NCBI RefSeq assembly: GCF_038025025.1
Contig: NW_027117339.1
Location: forward strand, 186,001 to 250,000
Source: Phyllosticta citribraziliensis
Lineage: Eukaryota
Direction: 5' to 3'
Length of the DNA stretch: 64,000 nucleotides
Shown here: positions 13,638 through 24,542 of the stretch, piece after piece
Numbering within the stretch: the first letter of the stretch is position 1
Layout of the letters: each line of letters begins with the position of its first letter
Position numbers and translations under genes: made by a program
The notes under the pieces: generated by a model
What the model was told of the DNA's origin: nothing
What the model saw: only the letters and a program-made list of their open reading frames with translations
Database searches by the model: none

Positions 13638-16270
13638 GGCTGGTATCTTTTTCGCTTTTCTCTTTCTTTACGAACGTGCTGCTTCTCTCAACGACGCGGG
13701 GAGGAAGAAAGTGGTGAAAGGACGATGAGAAGATGCTGTCAAAGCGAGAGGCGCCATAATGCCCTCACTTTAAGGGATGGACAGAGCCTGCGGCTTCGCA
13801 GTAAAACACCCTGATCAAAGCCGGCCTGCTCGAATCCGAACACGCCGTCTCCCGCCCCTCAGAGCAGCGCTCGAGTGGCGCACCGGACGAGTCGTTTGCG
13901 ACGCATACTCGAAAGAGCGCTGGCAGTGCTGTAGCGTCCGGCCGCGCAACATGCGGGGAAAGTGACGGCAATACCGCAATCTGGACGCCTCTGTTGTGTC
14001 AATGTCGTTCTAGAAGGCGGTCGCCGCTCGTCGTGGACCCCGAAGAAGACTCGAAGTCTAGCGCTTGGCAAGCCGCGTGTCTGGGGATTTTGGTGGTGAT
14101 GACAAGGCTCGATGATGCGTGTTTGGTTCGCTCGTTGTTCTTCAGGGTCTACTGTCTTAGACACTGAACGGCTAGAACCTGCGTGTCTGGAGGTCCTGGT
14201 CACTCGTTTAGTCGATTTGAGATCCATACGCGAGGAGCAAGGCAGTCGTCGGACTACGTGGACTCCCTCCTGGCGCCGGACGGAGAGCTGGCGTTCAGAA
14301 GGAAATAGCCTGGAAAGAAGCCAGCGTACACTGACTTGGCCAACTCCAACTCCCCCATCCTCGCTGAGGACATCGCGCGTCCCCAACCCACAACATCAGA
14401 AGCAGCACCAACGGTCCGGTCCCCGAAAGCCCAAAAGTCTCGACCCCAAGCGGCCCGCGATATCCGCAGATTCTCCATCTACCAACAAGCCCTCCTTTCG
14501 TTGGCCAGACGGCGTCTCAACCGCCGAACAAAGCACGTGAGTGCAGCCTTTGTCCAGATCGCACGCCTGGGAGATGCCACGGTGAGACAATCGAAGCGAC
14601 TGGACTTTCCAAACCAACAACGAGATGGCGCGGCGGGTGAGATGGTGTTTGGGAGGCCAGGTTTCCCGAGAGCGAGAGAAAGTCTCTAGGGGAAGTCGTT
14701 CTGGTTTGCTCCCTCGCATTCGCGATGGGAGGACGCGCCGTCTGGCACTGTCATCGCGCTTCTTGCTTTGTTGATCGGTCTTGTGGGGTTCTGTCTGCTT
14801 GACAATTGGAAATCGATTTTCGGCGGGCGTGTTCTGCTCCCTGTCTTCACTCGGCGCAGCAGCCATTTTCCGTCAATTTTCGCACTCAGTCCGCCATGAG
14901 CGAGCCTGGAATCGAGATGCCGACGAATTTCTCTCTGATTCGAGACTGCGAGGAACCAAAGCACATTGGAAGCGCACCAAGCGGCGAATCCATCCCTGGT
15001 TGAAGCGTAACGCACAAGGAAACCTCGCCGACGCCAGTTGGACTTCATCACGATCTTTACAGAGGAAATGCCAGCCGAAGAGACCCTGGTGGCATTTCCT
15101 CGTCGTTGAACCTGAAAGCCAGTTTCGTTGTCGACCAGAATGCCCCCTGAGCCGAAATACGAACAAAATTCTTGGACAAACAGCGATGGATAATGCGTTC
15201 TTGCGAAGTCCGAAGGCATACAAAGGGCTCAATATCCCCTGGAGGTTCTCATAGCAGCTCTTGACCAACGAGAGAAATGACAACGAGGTAAGAACAGGAA
15301 AGACAGGCGACTCTACAGATGTTGCCCTGGCTCGGGGGAGTCAGCCCTGGCGCATCTTTCACAGCCGCCAGGTTCAAGGACCATGCCAATTGTTCAACAT
15401 TCGTTCAAGAACTTTCTTGCTGACAGGCCAACTCAGCATTGCTTGAAACTACGACTGCGCGCGCCGAACCTCTGTACTCCAACGTACTGTAGCACAGAAC
15501 GAGACCCGCAAGATGTTGAACAACATATGGACAACGCTCAGGTCAAGTATCCACGCGTTGCCCTGCGCCGACCGTGATTTTGTAGCGCCGCTCGACGAAT
15601 GTCGCGCTTCTCAGAGGCCTGTAAATGGCTACCAACGCTTGGAGTGCAGTGTTACCGTATGCGGACAAGGCTTCAGTCGCCTGCGGCCTTGACTTCCCTC
15701 GTGCCGAGAGACTGTCTCCATAACCCAGCAAACCGTACAAACCGTAGAAGTCTGAACTTGCAATATTGCCGAATTTGGACGCCGCCCTAAGCGAGTGCTC
15801 CAAGCAAATCTGCCGCCCGGTCATCCAGCCATTTCATTCTACACCAACCCGTCCCTCGTCACCTCTCACACCTTGACCTTCGGCGACCGCTTCCTTGGCT
15901 AACAAGTCATACACCTCAACGCAGCGGTGCTCGTTCTTCTGTCACCTCTTCATCACCATCCTCCGCATCGTCTTAAATTCCGCTTCAGTTTCGCTCCAGC
16001 GCTACAGGGGCTTGCTGCGCTTGCCGCGCTGGCCAAGCTTCGTTCGGGGTTTCTCTGTAAGTGGCCGCCATTTTGGCCGCCAAATCACACTCCGCCGCCG
16101 CAGCACCGCTCGCTTTTCTCCCACCATTCCATCTCTGCCTTCTGAATTTGCTGACCTTTTTCACCCCTGCAGACTCCTCTCAAGCCCTCATATTCCAGGA
16201 CAGCCCCATTCAATTCCCTCCCGTGTCACCATTGGCATTCGCCCTCGACTCCTCGCCGGTAGTCGAAATC

Positions 16271-17423
16271 ATGGCCGACGAACCAGTGATCGAGGACTGG
16301 GCCAATCCTCCCATGCAGTACATCAAGAACCTCAAACGCATGAAGTGCAGTGAGGAGGACGACTGGATGACGCTCACCAAGGACAGAGCTGGTAAATACC
16401 AGCCGTTCTTCTTTCCTGGTGCCACGTCGACACGCCGTCACGTTAAAAACCCGCTTTGCGGCAAAACCCTCGTGCCTTATCTGCAGTTTTTGGACTTGAA
16501 GTTCGTCCGGACCATTGACTCGAGAGACGCTTATGTCGCGTTGCGCGAAATCTGGATCATAATATTTGGTGAGCCGGTCAACAAGGCGATGGCCAACGCC
16601 CAGTCAGCAAGTCCTGACTCTCACACCGCCGCGGCAGACATGCAAGGACAAGCGAGTTTGCCGGAGTCGTCTGCTATGGAAGACCAAGCAGCTGCAGATC
16701 AGGAGGTCACTGCCTCTGCTTCCTCGGACGGAGTTGGCGTTCAGTGTAAGTCGGATTCTGTTCCTGGGGCGATCTCGCTGACTAGTTGATAGACCAAGCT
16801 GGCAGCCAATTGGCTCCCTCCACTCCCAACCTTAGCATCACAAGTTCCAAGACAATTGGTCTTCAAGGTAAGCTTTGATGGCCTCTATCATAGCATATTG
16901 TTGACCTTTGATTTGTTCAGATGTTGCGCCTGGTTCGGGTCTTGGTGCCACCACCCCCACCAGCTTTCCCCCGGACCTCATCATTGTCAAGACCAAAGAT
17001 CGGCCCAAGACGTTGCAGCAATCGGGACTGGACCCGAACACGCGCAGCAGGTCTAAGAGAAAGAGATCAGAGTCCGATGATGGACAGTTGGTCGCCACGT
17101 CGTTGCGGGCCAGTTCTGCATCTTCGTCGTCAAATACGCGCCCCTCTGCTCGCGGTGAGATTGAGAGAAAAGTCAAGGCTGCCAAAGATAAGGTTGTCGT
17201 AAGTCTGCCATCTCCATGTTGTGAATCATTACCGTACTAAGTGAATTTCCAGAGAGAATCGCTTGTTGATCTCGGCAAAGAGGTCATAAAGAATGCTCAG
17301 GATTGGATCGCCAAGGTGGAAACCGCCGAGACTGGCGACGGCAACATCGCCGGCGCACTTCTCAATGTGCAAAACGTCGTGAATGACGGTCAAATGGCTC
17401 TTGAACTCTTGAATATGGACTAG
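16271..17423 (+). CDS. Orphan protein, 332 aa; long member of the tandem paralogue array
   Basis: Exons 16271-16745, 16793-16867, 16921-17198 and 17253-17423 splice to an open 999-nt frame; all introns begin GTAAG and end AG. Basic NLS-like RSKRKR. The C-terminus aligns with the three downstream genes. Confidence 0.75.
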
Positions 17424-18250
17424 GTCCGGCGCGCGAGAGGTTGGAAGAGCTTACCGATGTCGAGGAGTAATCAATCTGCTCGCCAGATGAAGGGGCATAC
17501 TCTTGAAATGGTGGCCACAGCAAAGATCGATCGTGTGGGGATGAAGTGTTTCGGAGTCCTTCTCTTCTCTTGGTCTGGTGGTGGCTGAGGAATGAAATCT
17601 GGTCGCAATGGTGGGAGCGTCAAGTTTTTAACAAGGATGGTCATCGCAAAGTCCAATATGGAGATGGAATGACTAGGGACGCTACCTTCCTTTGTCTGCT
17701 GGGGCTTCATCGACGGACAGCTTTAAGATGAACGAAGAATCAATGCTTCAGGGACGGCCGGCGGGCGGAATTTCGCAAGCACACGGGTAGTCTCTGCACA
17801 ATCAAGGGATCAATCGCCCTTAGGGCTTTTCAACCTTGGAAATCAATCCATAATTTTCATGCAGCCAGGTGGCTTAAGTCGAACGAGTACTGAGCAACTT
17901 CTAGAACCAAAAGTCCAGTCTTTGGACAATCAAGGCTGTCAGGTAAGTCGTTTCTGGCCTTGCTCCATTGTTCACGCTGCTGGCAAGTTTGCTTGTGCAA
18001 AGCAGACATCTCAGATCCAAACCTTCACACTGAGCTTCACACAGCGCTTGCACTGCTTACCGTTTTGGGCCGCCTACCACTTTGTGAAGCTTCACTTCAC
18101 ATGTGAACTCTGGTACCTACTTGCCAAACTCTGCTTGCGGTCCTTGACCAAACTTCAACACCCTCCAGGCTGTCAGCCACATCCGTCCCTCACCATCAGC
18201 ATCGACCACTCTGTACCCTCTCAACCAACCACCTCGGCGAACTTGACACC

Positions 18251-18818
18251 ATGTCGGCTCCCAAGCAGGAGGAAGACCCGGTATCTTACCACGTCTGCAT
18301 GTTTATTTCATGAAAGCTAAGATGTCTCTCCAGATCACAAAAAGATTCCCGGAAGAGTACGATCAAGCTCGCAACTTCATCGAACTGAAGGTTGAAATCG
18401 GCAAACACAAGGAAAACGTAAGCTTACTCGCCACCGCCACTCTCTTGACTGTGGATGCTGACGGATGGGCTCAAAGGGCAAAGGAATCATCGCTCTCATG
18501 GAGCAGATCAAGGAAACCGCTGATGCTACCAAAGCCACGGTCGAACGCATCGAGAACAGACTCACTTCCCTGGTCTCAAAGATGGATCGCGAGGAAAACT
18601 TCATGGACAGCTCCGGTGACATTGTCTCGGAAACCCTCTGGTCGACCTGCGAGAATCTGGACGAAGACTATGACGAGGATGACTTTGACAATGCGACACC
18701 TGGTGGCTACAACGGCATCAAGCAAATTGCGAAGCTTGCCAATCTAGCAGCTCAACTGTTGAAGGAGCAACGATTGGCTCGCAAGAAGATGGCAAATGTG
18801 TCCGGCCTCTACGTCTGA
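18251..18818 (+). CDS. Orphan small helical protein, 151 aa (array member 2)
   Basis: Exons 18251-18280, 18334-18417 and 18477-18818; both introns phase 0 with GCTAAG/GCTGAC branch sites. Confidence 0.8.
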
Positions 18819-19686
18819 TTGGAGAACTCGCAATCGATGATGATCTGAGCTTGGAGGCAGGGAACCAGATGGTTGAGAGCGGAAAAGACAGCTGGAAAGC
18901 AAACAACAAGGGCATCTGGTTTTCCTTGGATCAGGTTAGAGCGCATCAGCAGCAAAAGTGCAGGGCAATCAAGCAGGGCTGCATCAGAATCGGGTGGAAA
19001 TTTGCTGGTACATTCACCTCCTTCGGCACACGGTCAAAAAGCCCGTCAAGGAATCAAAAGTAGTCAATCACACGACTGGACACAAAATTCAAGTTCTAGT
19101 TCTCCAGTTGTCCAGTCCAATGTCTTGAAAAAATGAAGTCGTGACCATGTTGCACTGTACCATATTTTGCGCAGAAGCAAAGCGCGTGAACCAATCTCAG
19201 GGCAGTCCTGCGGTCAACGCCCAAGGTTCTCGCAGGGAAAATGCCAGGCAACCGGCCTTTGATCTTGGCCTCTGTTCCAGAGCTGCTTGTGGGTTTGTTT
19301 GCGCGCCTCGTTCGGCAGTCCGCGTCCTATCTTTTACGTCCACTTTTCCACAACAAACGCCCGACGAGTCTTGATTCCGCCTGACCCATGAGCGACAGAG
19401 GCCTGTGCGGCTCGACCGCCCGCAGTCAGGTGACGTCATTGGGGAGTCGTTCGGTTAGCTGCTGTGAGTAGCTTTAGACGCGTCCTCAGGCGCGTCCCCC
19501 CAGACAAAACAATGCATTTGGCTTGCAGCGCCCTCACTGACCTGCCCTCCACATCGAGTGTTGATCAATTCCGCCCGCGGTGCCTCGCCAAATCTCTACA
19601 TTCTCCACCTCCTACCACGCCCAAGCCTTCTGCGTCGAGACTGCGCCGTCTACGCCTTTCCAACACCCCAATCGCAATCTGGTATC

Positions 19687-20235
19687 ATGGCTTCCCTCGA
19701 GTCGGAAGAAGTCACAGTAAGCTTACCGTATTGATTCACTCCGTTGGTGAAAGCTAAGACACTTGCCCAGTACCCGCAGGAGCATGACGACGAATTTTTC
19801 AAGAGATCTTGTCAGATCAAAGAATTGAAGGCGCAGGTTGCCAAGCTGCAGCAGATGGTAAGCCAGCAACACCTGTCTTATTGATTGAGAGTGGTCCACT
19901 CAGCTGTTGCGCAGGACATCGAGCTCCTTGGACACTTGGAGCGCATCGAATTTAACGTCGCCGAAGCCAAGATCAACCTTCAGCAGCGCAGGGTCGACAT
20001 GGACGGGCTGTCGGAAACCTTGGAAAAAATGTTGCAGGATGGATACCCGCTGCCTAAGGCTGTCGAGGATGCGCTCCGCAACAACGCTGAATACAGTATT
20101 GGCAGGGTGGATATCCCTTGCGGATTCTCAAACGTCTCGCTGGTCTCTCACGATACCCAGGTGGCAATGCATCTTTTCAAAGCCCAGGGTTCGGCTCGTC
20201 GCGAGATGTTGGCGCTGGCCAAAAAGCATGAATAA
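19687..20235 (+). CDS. Orphan small helical protein, 145 aa (array member 3)
   Basis: Exons 19687-19716, 19771-19857 and 19915-20235; both introns phase 0 with GTAAGC donors. Confidence 0.8.
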
Positions 20236-21018
20236 ACATGAATGGTCAGTTGCAAGGGAGGAAGGGCTACGAGGAGATCTCTTCTCACTCAAGGTCGTCG
20301 TTGCAAACTTGGCAGGCCAGGCCGTCATTTCCTGGTCATGGGCAAGACCGGGTGGATGCATTTCCCTCAGGTCAATCGAAATCCAAAGAAGTTCTTCAAG
20401 ACAACTGTTTCAGATGTTATCGTGGTGACCAGTTCCAGAATCCCATGTCCAACCTTCGGCTCCTTTGTGAACAGAATTCCATCATTCATGCCTTGCTCTT
20501 TCTTTCTGCATGATGTCTGAAGTCGTCGAATAGGCCGTGGTACCTGAGGACCTTGCCCGCAAAGTTCTGATAGTTGATGAACAACAGTGTCACTGGTCGA
20601 AGAGAACACTGAGGGATCACTTTGGGTCATCAGTTGGTTGGAGCCGATAGCATGGAAGACTTCCTCTCTTGGTTCTCTAGTAGCGAGATTTCATGAGTAG
20701 AGACTCTGCAGGTCGCCCTCTTCGCACCTCATGATGAGCTGGAATCAACCAGCCTTTGACTTCGCACTCACCACTGAAGGCGCTCGTGGTTTTGGCTGGG
20801 CGGCTCGTTCGGCAATCAATTTCCAATCCTTCACATCCAAGTTTTCACATCAAGCGCCCGCGTCACGGGCGGCCAAATTTCACTCCGCACTGGAGGGGCT
20901 ATAAAGTCCGCTCGCCGCTCTTCGCCAAAGATCTAACAACCCCACCTCCAACCATCGGCTTCGCCCATCACCATCCAACAAGATCGATCCCCTCGGACTG
21001 GCCCACCACCTCTGCAAC

Positions 21019-21560
21019 ATGGAGGAGTTTGAAGTTAGTCCATCACCGCAGCCCTGTTTGCTGACAATCGCTAAGCGCTGTTGCAGATGATGTGGGAAGA
21101 GAAGGCGGAGCACAAGTACGCTTGTCAGAACAAAGATCTGAAGCTTCAGACTGTCATTGCCCAGCATCTGGTAATGTTGACGCCATGGCCCTGTTAATCA
21201 GTTACGAGCAGCTGCTGACCTACCACCCAGGGTACCGAGCTTCTCGCACTCTTCAAGCAGACGAAGGAAAAGCTTGAGCTGGCGACGGCCGCCACTGAAC
21301 ACGACATGGCCGAGTTGGCTAAGCTCAGCACCAACGCGGACAAGAATTTCTACGACAGTCCGAAGCCGCGCGAACTCGTCGTTCACACAGTCCTTGAGAA
21401 GACCGGTGAATACAAGGTGTACCCCAAGAGCTTCAACGACATTTTCGAGATGCTTGAGCATGCCAAGCTGGCCTTTCATTTGGTCGGCAGCCAATGCCGG
21501 GCGCGCGAGAAGATGTTGACGCTGGTCGAGACGGACATCGACGAGAAGGACAGTGAGTGA
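21019..21560 (+). CDS. Orphan small helical protein, 142 aa (array member 4)
   Basis: Exons 21019-21033, 21087-21170 and 21231-21560; both introns phase 0. TATAAA lies about 120 bp upstream. Confidence 0.8.
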
Positions 21561-21983
21561 TCACTTTGGGTCGTCAGCTGGGTTGGAGTTGGACAACACG
21601 GGCGACTTACTCTCTCAGTACTCTGGTAGCCAGATCATGAATGGAAACCTTGGGTCTCACCCTCCTCGTGCCTTGTGATGAGCATCATTGGAAATCAAAA
21701 GAGTAGTCATGAAGTCTGGTTCGCAAGCAAGGCAAATTCAACACCGCTGCGCAAATGCATTGATATATGGGAATACAGCGAAATTCTGCACATCAGCCAC
21801 TTCTGCCTGAGTGCGGCCCCTCTCTCCTAGGAGAGAAAGGGTAGAAAGTAAATGGGAGTCAACATCTTAGCCTCGTGACTCGTGACTCGCCCCGGCTGGG
21901 CAGTCCCCCTCCGTCTTCGAATTCCGCGGTCTTCCTGGACAGCTCTTGCAGGTCACCACCTCCTCGGAGTCAGCGGAGTTGAT

Positions 21984-23293
21984 TTAGGCCTTGAACTTCC
22001 TGGCAACGGTGCCGGAAGACGCAGTAGCGCCAACAGTGACGGTGACCGTGGCGGTCTGGATGTTGGAAACGTAGACAGTCTCGGTGGTAGTCGAGATGTA
22101 GTTACCGCCAGCGGCGGCAGCTGAGGAGGCAACGACGGCCGCGGGAGTGGTCACAGGGGTGCTGGCGGCCGCGCTGGTGGCGGCGACAGCGACGGCGCTC
22201 GAAGTGACCTCGGCCTCGTCCTCGTCATCGCAGTCGTACTCCTCGTCGTCCTCAGCGGTAGCAGAGGCGCTGGGAGTAGCAACAGCAGCCACAGCGCTCG
22301 AGGACTGGACAACGGCGCTGGAAGACTGGACGACAGCGGCAGCAGCCGAGCTGGTAGCAGCAACAGGGGTCGAAGCCGCAGCGCTGGTGGCAGCCACAGA
22401 AGCCGCACCAGTGGCAGAAGCTCCACTGCTAGCGCCGGTCCAGACAGTAGGGCCGGGGATGGGGTAGGTCGAAAAGTCGCCGTACATGTTGAACAGAATA
22501 CCCGCGTCATCCGCCGCGTAGGCGCCGGGAAGAGCCACGCCCTCAGGAAGGCTGGTAGTTCCACTTCCTTTTAAAATTAGCTGGATACACTCCATGTAGA
22601 ACTGCGCTTTAGAGACGTTAATAGAGATGTCCTGAGATCGGAGAAATAGTCCACAAACCTCCTCCCTCGTTCGAAGCCTCATGGAGAGCAATAATCTCAG
22701 GGCGGAGAAGATAGTTGCCAGGAGTAACGTCAGGAATAGTGATACTGTGTTTTCCCTTGTTGGAAATCAAAGTATCAACGGCCCATGTGCCGTCTTGATA
22801 TCCGTCGGCTGCGAGCTTGCTCCAACCGGTTCCGTTTCCGCCCTTGTCGGCCTCCGCCATGTATGTCATGACCTAAAATTGGTCAGCCTGCGTCTACCCA
22901 GGTATCCAAACAGCCAGAAATACCGGGCCCTTGTGAGATGAGGCGATTATATCGTCAGAGGAGTCGCGGGAGTTGTGGTGCCACTCAAAGGTGATTTTGT
23001 CACCAGCCGAAACCTCCAGAGACTTTGCAGTCTCTACATTGTTGACATTGCACGTCATATCGGTAGAGCTACATGTACTACGTTAGAAAGAAGTCCAACG
23101 CGCTAATTTGGGGCCGGGAAACGTACGTGACGTCCTTGACGGGGTCGTTGTTGGGAGGGCTACGAATGTAGCCGCTGTCACTGTTGCCAAGTCCCTGGTC
23201 AACATCGTTGATCCAGACAGCGTAAACAGTGGTGTGGGCGTAGGCCAGCTTCGCCGCAGCTGCCAGAGCAAGGGCACCGTAGGTAGTCTTCAT
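21984..23293 (-). CDS. AA9 lytic polysaccharide monooxygenase with long low-complexity C-terminal extension
   Basis: Signal peptide then His1 ([11 protein letters not shown]), [48 protein letters not shown]; three introns. Confidence 0.95.
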
Positions 23294-24542
23294 TTTGAAA
23301 GAGTGTGGTTGTTTGTAAGGGGTTGAAAGAACGAATGTGGACGCAAATGCGCAGCAGCGTCGAAGAGAATGAAAGCAGGTCTAGCCGGGCTTGTTGGAAC
23401 GATAAACAAGACCAAGATATCCCAAGCTCTTCTTATATACAGCCATCACGCTCGCTCCGCTCGGAAATTGCCAGTCTGGAGTCGGTGGAGTGAGCCAGCG
23501 CTTTCAGCGTCGAGGCTTTTGCCAAGAGCTGTATAGCATTCGCTAACGCTTTTCTATGCTGATGCGGCGCGTGCATTTGGCGATGGGCGAGCTCGAAGGC
23601 TGTCGAGTTTCATATATTTGCAACATTCAACTCCACAGCGCGGTACGATGGCCGAAAAAGGACAAGGCTGAGGGCGTTGGCCAATCGCTTCGCCGTTGAA
23701 ACGCAAGTGCCCATGCGCGTGGTCTTTGCGTGTTACTCCTTCCGCACCTTAACGAGATGATGGAACACCACTTCGCTCCTGCTCAACCGCAGAACAAGCG
23801 GTAAACCAGCAAAAAGGAGTGGCCGCGGTCGCGAAGGCAGACGCCTGCTGTGCCCATGTCTGGAAAAGGCCGTGGCTTGTATTCAACAACAAAGGCTTCG
23901 GTTTGACGGTCCGCCGTCCCCGCCTCTTCTTTTTCCATCTCCCCCACGGCAACGCCAGATTTTGCTGGATGATTCGACTCATTGTTGGTGTTCACGATGC
24001 TCTCCTATCAGCAGGGGCTTTGACGAAAGAGGCGGTCCAGCAGTCTCCACGATCTACGGCAAGGGGTCGAGCAAAGATCCGGAGTACGGTCGGTGCGCCA
24101 TGGATGAGACATGATGTTGAGCATGGATTCGTTGGTCGCCTTTCATGGACGCAGTTTTTCCGTCCAATGCTTCGGCGCAGGATTGCCTCGTTGTCGGCTT
24201 CTCTGTCTTCAAGAACCGAAGAGGCCCGATGTTCTTGAAATGGACCTGTGGAACAGGAATCAAATTTTCTTGGCAGGCAATGCAGTCAGCTCTCCTATTT
24301 GTCGCTTCTTGTTGCTCCTTTCGGCCAAGGGATCTTGACCGAGGATTCACGAGCTTGATTGTGAGGTGTTTAAGCTTATCATGAAGAACAAGCGCCGTGG
24401 CCAGTTGCTGCGCGTCGGCAGATCGTTTTGAAGAGCGCGCAGCGGCTTCTAGGGCCGACCTGGCGCTTCCGGACTATCGTTCCTCCAGTGCGCTATCTTT
24501 TGACAACGGCTGGCCATCTGCTTCCAAATTCTCCAGCGAAAC

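Follow-up and report, generated by a model that had tools for sequence, protein, structure and literature searches.

Four tandem genes of Phyllosticta citribraziliensis as probable members of an old, genus-restricted family of small helical proteins

Results

A stretch of 64,000 nucleotides from the fungus Phyllosticta citribraziliensis (contig NW_027117339.1, positions 186,001 to 250,000; hereafter the window) carries on its plus strand an array of four co-oriented genes, A, B, C and D, which start at positions 16271, 18251, 19687 and 21019. The account of this array that we favor, and consider likely though well short of certain, is that it constitutes an old family, restricted to Phyllosticta, of small, acidic, soluble and mostly helical proteins, which evolves by birth and death and acts via helical association. 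All four genes are transcribed and spliced. An earlier note on this DNA, made without database searches, had described them as four paralogues with a conserved intron architecture. This description holds for B, C and D; for A it fails with respect to the whole layout and stands for the last intron and the last ~75–90 residues.

Gene models and their transcripts

The layout that had been predicted for B, C and D, with a short exon, a second exon of 28–29 codons and a third of ~110 codons, was reproduced by the models spliced by coordinates (Table 1), in which all six introns are GT..AG and all six lie in phase 0. The common orientation of the four genes, A included, was confirmed as well. The coding introns of A are in phases 1, 1 and 0. 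Spliced B is identical to the deposited hypothetical protein BC567DRAFT_258988 (151 amino acids, aa), and spliced C to BC567DRAFT_245607 (145 aa), with the same intron 2 junction; a 3.5-Mb contig carries both. In a homologous-protein search, the exon-3 products of B and C each retrieved only their own deposited protein, at 100% identity, and that of D had no match among deposited proteins of 59–191 aa (5 candidates). The deposited annotation probably lacks gene D.

Transcript evidence came from two sequencing runs with the same organism label as the window, X1 and X3. That these runs contain RNA was at first a guess; as their contigs skip GT..AG stretches, they must hold spliced RNA. Five of the six predicted introns of B–D were directly skipped, and exactly so, in these contigs (18281–18333, 18418–18476, 19717–19770, 21034–21086 and 21171–21230), which bears out the junctions of the earlier note. 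Both B introns were found in one X1 contig spanning 18082–18895, C intron 1 in both runs, D intron 1 in X1 and D intron 2 in X3. For C intron 2 the support is of the loose-end type only, from an X1 contig that starts at 19914, the loose letters of which finish with the final bases of exon 2. Four introns of A, all of them GT..AG, were also skipped in X1 and X3 contigs (16057–16172, 16746–16792, 16868–16920 and 17199–17252), the first of them in the 5' untranslated region (UTR). The X1 contig depth was 893 for A versus 4–40 for B–D, depths that cannot rank expression.

An antisense spliced transcript was also observed, which overlaps the whole last exon of D (its intron is given in Table 1). 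Downstream, a gene for an AA9 (GH61) lytic polysaccharide monooxygenase (LPMO), with several exons on the minus strand (21984–23380), converges on D; its product has a long Ser/Ala/Thr-rich C-terminal region. The antisense transcript may represent a long 3' UTR of this AA9 gene or an RNA of its own. Its splice donor is missing from the paralogous block that follows gene C, where the minus strand reads GGAAGT.

Paralogy of the short genes

Pairwise identity among B, C and D is 21–29% in a MAFFT alignment. Smith-Waterman comparison of the full spliced proteins against 2000 shuffles gave a z of 12.6 for C–D, 8.1 for B–D and 5.3 for B–C, the real score being reached by none of the 2000 shuffles in the first two pairs and by 3 of 2000 in the last. 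Shuffles that preserved the heptad register or 7-residue blocks reached it in 3–4 of 2000 cases for B–C and in 0 of 2000 for both B–D and C–D. The similarity of all three pairs is therefore above heptad-preserving controls, the kind of shuffled coiled-coil comparison by which, according to the earlier note, the paralogy could have been refuted. When the exon-3 products were compared alone, BLASTP similarity was weak for C–D (E 4e-6) and B–C (E 0.002), and no match was reported for B–D.

Gene structure agrees with these alignments. Intron 2 falls in alignment column 43 in B, C and D alike, and intron 1 at columns 10, 12 and 10, that is, within two columns. The C-termini align without gaps, as had been claimed, with invariant residues P, A, L, Q, A-R and M that cluster in the C-terminal helix, and the match among the second exons is present too. 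Moreover, the sequence said to be common to intron 1 of B and C turned out to be a 12-mer, TGAAAGCTAAGA, unique to these two introns within the window. With up to one mismatch, 0.26 matches would be expected by chance, and two or more were found in 1 of 100 shuffles; in both introns, 11 nt separate the 12-mer, which holds a branch-point-like CTAAG, from the 3' splice site that follows. As judged from these comparisons, B, C and D are real paralogues. A hidden Markov model (HMM) built from them detected no further copy among the 1350 six-frame open reading frames (ORFs) of the window.

A family module at the end of gene A

Smith-Waterman comparison revealed no relation of the N-terminal 250 residues of A to the B/C/D family. 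In local alignments of its C-terminal 82 residues, the score with B was reached by 17 of 2000 shuffles and that with C by 92 of 2000, and no local alignment with D was obtained. The last intron of A and intron 2 of B, both phase 0, lie between the same aligned residues. Using this intron as an independent anchor, we compared without gaps the 17 residues upstream and the 25 downstream of it. A and B were identical at 13 of these 42 positions, and their score was reached by none of 5000 shuffles and by none of 284 other windows of A. Over the same span this score was 40 for A–B versus 24 for B–C, 32 for B–D and 38 for C–D. The corresponding A–D and A–C scores were weak, being reached by 112 and 266 of 5000 shuffles, respectively.

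Profile methods gave marginal results. The score of the B/C/D HMM against the C-terminus of A was reached by 3 of 1000 shuffles, hhalign gave a P of 0.034 for the A C-terminus against B/C/D, and the last exon of A was the best non-family match of the 1350 ORFs, at an E of only 1.6. A has neither the terminal Q..AR..M motif nor the middle part of the module. Judged by intron position and sequence, A ends in the family module and is closest there to its neighbor B; this link of A to the short members appears to be new. The rest of A, read from its sequence, has a long middle part rich in Ser, Ala and Thr, and also a stretch KRKR. No Pfam match was found for three A exon products, and no PDB match for exon 1, whose AlphaFold2 model (mean predicted local distance difference test score, pLDDT, 46.8) was unusable; the ESM Atlas gave no usable match either.

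Duplication history and related genomes

The most alike pairs of the array are neighbors, A–B and C–D. Around C and D, three pairs of flanking blocks (Table 1), with no further copies within the window, delimit two tandem units, 19249–20745 and 20746 to ~21690. Unit C contains in addition a stretch of its own (Table 1), and C and D have different C-terminal tails because this stretch holds the last five codons and the stop of C. The C/D flanks are 72–73% identical versus 88–95% for the same DNA in a related organism, and the duplication should therefore be older than the split between these species. Of the earlier description of an old or fast-evolving lineage-specific family, the lineage-specific part stands, and old fits better than fast-evolving, given these flank identities and the low ratio found below for B. 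For the C–D pair a codon alignment yielded a dS of 0.90, a dN of 0.76 and a dN/dS of ~0.85; for B–C and B–D, dS is saturated.

The comparison with relatives relied on run X5, which bears a different organism label and apparently contains two related genomes at different depth. X5 gives no cover over 16000–17939 (gene A), and the comparison concerns the part from B to D. In the deeper genome (depth ~66–71), B is ~94.5% identical, with 43 differences and 1 gap in 800 nt, the B–C spacer is ~94% identical and the 3' part of D is 98% identical; a joint, 19723>21314, fuses C exon 1 in frame, by arithmetic, to D exon 3. In the shallower genome (depth ~12.5–14), the joint 18264>18969 removes B, the joint 20547>21691 removes the D unit, and a C-like copy is ~88% identical, with insertions in exon 3 that add up to a net +10 nt. 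We infer that these copy differences between relatives are secondary losses.

Selection could be followed in B. Among the differences listed between the two organisms, at least 11 are synonymous and at least 6 non-synonymous, which gives a pN/pS of ~0.15, a count that may be incomplete, as 132 table rows lie outside it. By the same list, the introns of B differ at no fewer than 10 of 112 positions and its exons at no fewer than 17 of 456. These counts suggest that at least B is under purifying selection.

Two further features of the related genomes were noted. The shallower one is longer by 3036 letters between 20418 and 20478, inside the unit-C-specific stretch, and this interval may be prone to insertions. 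Several other X5 contigs share only a 62-nt segment upstream of C (19398–19459) and are then unlike the window, with a summed depth of up to 535; this pattern suggests a repeat dispersed through the genome of the related organism. In the window, the segment has a single copy.

Protein properties

B, C and D are acidic (isoelectric point 4.75–5.65) and hydrophilic (grand average of hydropathy -0.48 to -0.74), and no signal peptide was seen on reading the sequences of the family proteins. An alignment-free AlphaFold2 model of C, of low overall confidence (mean pLDDT 66.5), shows a long helix over residues 14–80, for which 10-residue block means exceed 90 at 21–50 and are 86 at 51–60, then a short helix (87–96), a low-confidence loop and a C-terminal helix (119–143) with the conserved motif. 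With respect to a hetero-oligomeric complex, which the earlier note had offered as an alternative to genetic conflict, a prediction of the B + C complex, run without controls, scored 0.04 (mark 0.34) and gives no verdict either way.

The earlier note had recognized no family, and the searches agree. In Pfam, B, C, D and the three A exon products, all six that were scanned, remained below threshold (best 12.9–14.5 bits versus cut-offs of 25–30.7). A PDB profile search revealed no relative (best E 0.15), and Foldseek found no match in the PDB for the C model (best E 8.5). For B, the best ESM Atlas feature scores (0.77–0.82) were below lead level, with TM values of 0.30–0.52 to unrelated families. 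A phmmer search with C against 1.84 billion representatives returned C itself and two weak matches, of 899 aa (E 2e-4) and 1734 aa (E 5e-4), which are probably low-complexity matches.

Distribution and published record

Metagenome scans with the exon-3 alignment and with A exon 1 yielded 542 and 87 pattern matches, respectively, none of which was confirmed. In our literature search, no description of the family was found, and only one listing bears on it. This is the OrthoFinder group OG0017567 of Buijs et al. 2022 (PMC9073689), in which C (jgi Phcit1 245607) is placed together with four proteins of P. capitalensis. The number 245607 is the same as in the NCBI locus tag of gene C. In that analysis of 116 fungal proteomes, the counts of the group over eight Phyllosticta genomes were 4, 1, 0, 0, 0, 0, 0 and 0, and the model numbers of two of its P. 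capitalensis members, gm1.2221 and gm1.2225, lie close together. OG0017567 is one of 45 groups of two endophytic Phyllosticta species that are absent from pathogens, and its members are all labeled hypothetical or expressed protein (PMC9073689). The closest relative of P. citribraziliensis is P. citrichinaensis, P. capitalensis being more distant (PMC9073689). Gene B (258988) was not found among the supplement entries listed, and the listing, as far as available, is given without an account of the tandem array, of the paralogy with B, D and A, of gene structure or of protein properties (PMC9073689). The patchy distribution of OG0017567 fits loss or missing annotation.

By all these searches, the family appears restricted to the genus Phyllosticta and uncharacterized, and has no recognizable relatives.

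In addition, 16 low-depth contigs from X2, a run labeled as surface metagenome, are all at least 99% alike to 16000–21800. Going by this match, the species itself, or else a strain very close to it, is present in the environmental sample.

Genomic surroundings

The genes around the array are ordinary ones, encoding NOT2/3/5, the SRP receptor beta, the AA9 LPMO, SNF2 and an arabinofuranosidase.

Table 1. Coordinates of the array genes and associated features (positions in the window)
Feature	Position	Strand	Details
Gene A	16271..17423; coding exons 16271-16745, 16793-16867, 16921-17198, 17253-17423	+	332 aa; transcript end ~17859
Gene A 5' UTR intron	16057-16172	+	116 nt; both RNA runs X1 and X3
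Family module in A	17145..17420	+	~residues 259-332; split by phase-0 intron 17199-17252
Gene B	exons 18251-18280, 18334-18417, 18477-18818	+	151 aa; 10/28/113 codons
Gene C	exons 19687-19716, 19771-19857, 19915-20235	+	145 aa; 10/29/106 codons
Gene D	exons 21019-21033, 21087-21170, 21231-21560	+	142 aa; 5/28/109 codons
12-mer TGAAAGCTAAGA	18311-18322 (B intron 1), 19748-19759 (C intron 1)	+	sole 2 matches in the window
5' flank block, unit C	19249-19363 = 20746-20860 upstream of D	+	blastn 72% over 116 nt, E 6e-15
Second 5' flank block, unit C	19547-19617 = 20883-20954	+	blastn 69% over 72 nt, E 2e-6
3' flank block, unit C	20598-20739 = 21542-21683 (end of the D coding sequence and its 3' UTR)	+	blastn 73% over 144 nt, E 5e-21
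Unit-C-specific stretch	20219-20597	+	~380 nt; between anchors 20204-20218 = 21511-21525 and 20598 = 21542; absent from unit D
Intron of antisense spliced transcript	21564-21610	-	47 nt; CT..AC joint in X1 contig covering 21252-21563 (contig cover 21252-21703); minus-strand GTAAGT..AG

Discussion

Under the reading that we favor, the array would have grown by serial tandem duplication, older than the split from close relatives. Evolution by birth and death is suggested by the deletions, or the fusion of members, found in related genomes. The proteins would be non-enzymatic. The long helix encoded across exons 2 and 3, as modeled for C, could mediate coiled-coil self- or cross-association, and the C-terminal helix, P-x-G/S-F/Y ... 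A-x-x-L-x-x-x-Q-x-x-A-R-x-x-M, may form a common binding surface for a shared partner. The short members B–D would then probably be adaptors or modulators, possibly of the A product.

Several observations weigh against this reading. The dN/dS of C–D fits long relaxed constraint, and members have been lost in relatives, so that none of them would be essential there. The two joints that fuse C to D and that remove B in X5 have shorter sides of only 32 and 30 letters, respectively, and the count behind the pN/pS of B may be incomplete. The similarity of A to C and to D is weak, and the helical model of C is of low overall confidence. With respect to restriction within the genus, the zero counts in OG0017567 may partly reflect missing annotation, because D itself matched no deposited protein.

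Some of these same observations bear on a serious rival, that of drift toward loss, which we regard as unlikely. It holds that these lineage-specific genes are decaying or drift neutrally, have hardly any function or none, and are transcribed and spliced only through persisting signals. The C–D ratio of ~0.85 would fit it, as would the deletions that remove B, C/D or D from related contigs, the net +10 nt insertion in the C-like copy of the shallower X5 genome and the failure of D to match any deposited protein. However, the three short ORFs and the splice sites of all six introns are intact despite saturated dS, the C-terminal motif is conserved, B appears to be under purifying selection, and P. 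capitalensis keeps four copies in the C orthogroup (PMC9073689). A microProtein-like origin, to which we would give rather little credit, concerns the relation of the short genes to A: B–D would be truncated paralogues of A that keep its C-terminal interaction module and titrate or redirect A, so that changes in copy number would tune A. In line with this, A and B have the module and its intron position in common, A lies directly upstream of the short genes in the same orientation, and these genes lack the N-terminal 250 residues of A, a protein with an NLS-like (nuclear localization signal-like) KRKR and a long disordered middle. The weak A–C and A–D similarity, and the absence from A of the middle of the module and of the terminal Q..AR..M motif, argue against it, and the reverse direction, with a short member fused onto another gene, is equally possible. 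An extension of this scheme seems to us improbable, namely that gain, loss and fusion of such microProtein-like derivatives of the A module tune a genus-specific nuclear protein and might contribute to the difference between endophytes and pathogens; the link to lifestyle is raised because the C orthogroup was found only in two endophytic species.

The earlier note had also proposed genetic conflict (meiotic drive, allorecognition or defence), in which a driver, recognition or defence element would cause divergence and presence/absence variation. We consider this highly improbable. Among known elements of this kind, Spok drivers have nuclease/kinase domains, wtf drivers have a multi-pass membrane topology, and allorecognition proteins have a HET or NACHT domain. 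The Pfam scan of B, C, D and three exon products of A, together with the PDB profile search, detected no HET, NACHT, nuclease, kinase, toxin or transmembrane feature, and the proteins are hydrophilic. The strong divergence of the B/C/D paralogues and the patchy distribution of the orthogroup would be in keeping with conflict, and so would the differing member content among related genomes, which we count as the one feature compatible with it. Against this, B shows purifying selection between relatives, the duplication is old, and the array lies among housekeeping genes and not in a variable island. Conflict is thus disfavored, with no domain or motif to speak for it.

The analysis documents a genus-restricted family with RNA-confirmed gene models, including D, which has no deposited match, and the newly linked A. 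The array exemplifies how close relatives come to differ by loss after an old tandem duplication. This phenomenon is a familiar one, and the finding is modest; as it stands, we are dealing with an ordinary orphan tandem family. If it proved true that the short proteins modulate A, or that array content tracks lifestyle in citrus-associated Phyllosticta, the array would become a tractable system for regulatory innovation through partial duplication of a gene.

Two types of known systems invite comparison. MicroProteins are small paralogues of larger proteins that consist of an interaction domain only, such as LITTLE ZIPPER and Id proteins. Unlike these systems, the large protein here, A, has no recognized functional domain; the likeness, which is one of architecture only, is that the short proteins are made up of a helical module that their larger neighbor has at its end as well. 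Fungal lineage-specific tandem gene families that evolve by birth and death are a general concept. The array differs from them in lacking a signal peptide, any cysteine pattern and effector-like features, and in lying among housekeeping genes instead of in a repeat-rich or subtelomeric compartment. It resembles them in its tandem, co-oriented and diverged copies, in their conserved exon layout, in a copy content that varies and in its confinement to a narrow clade.

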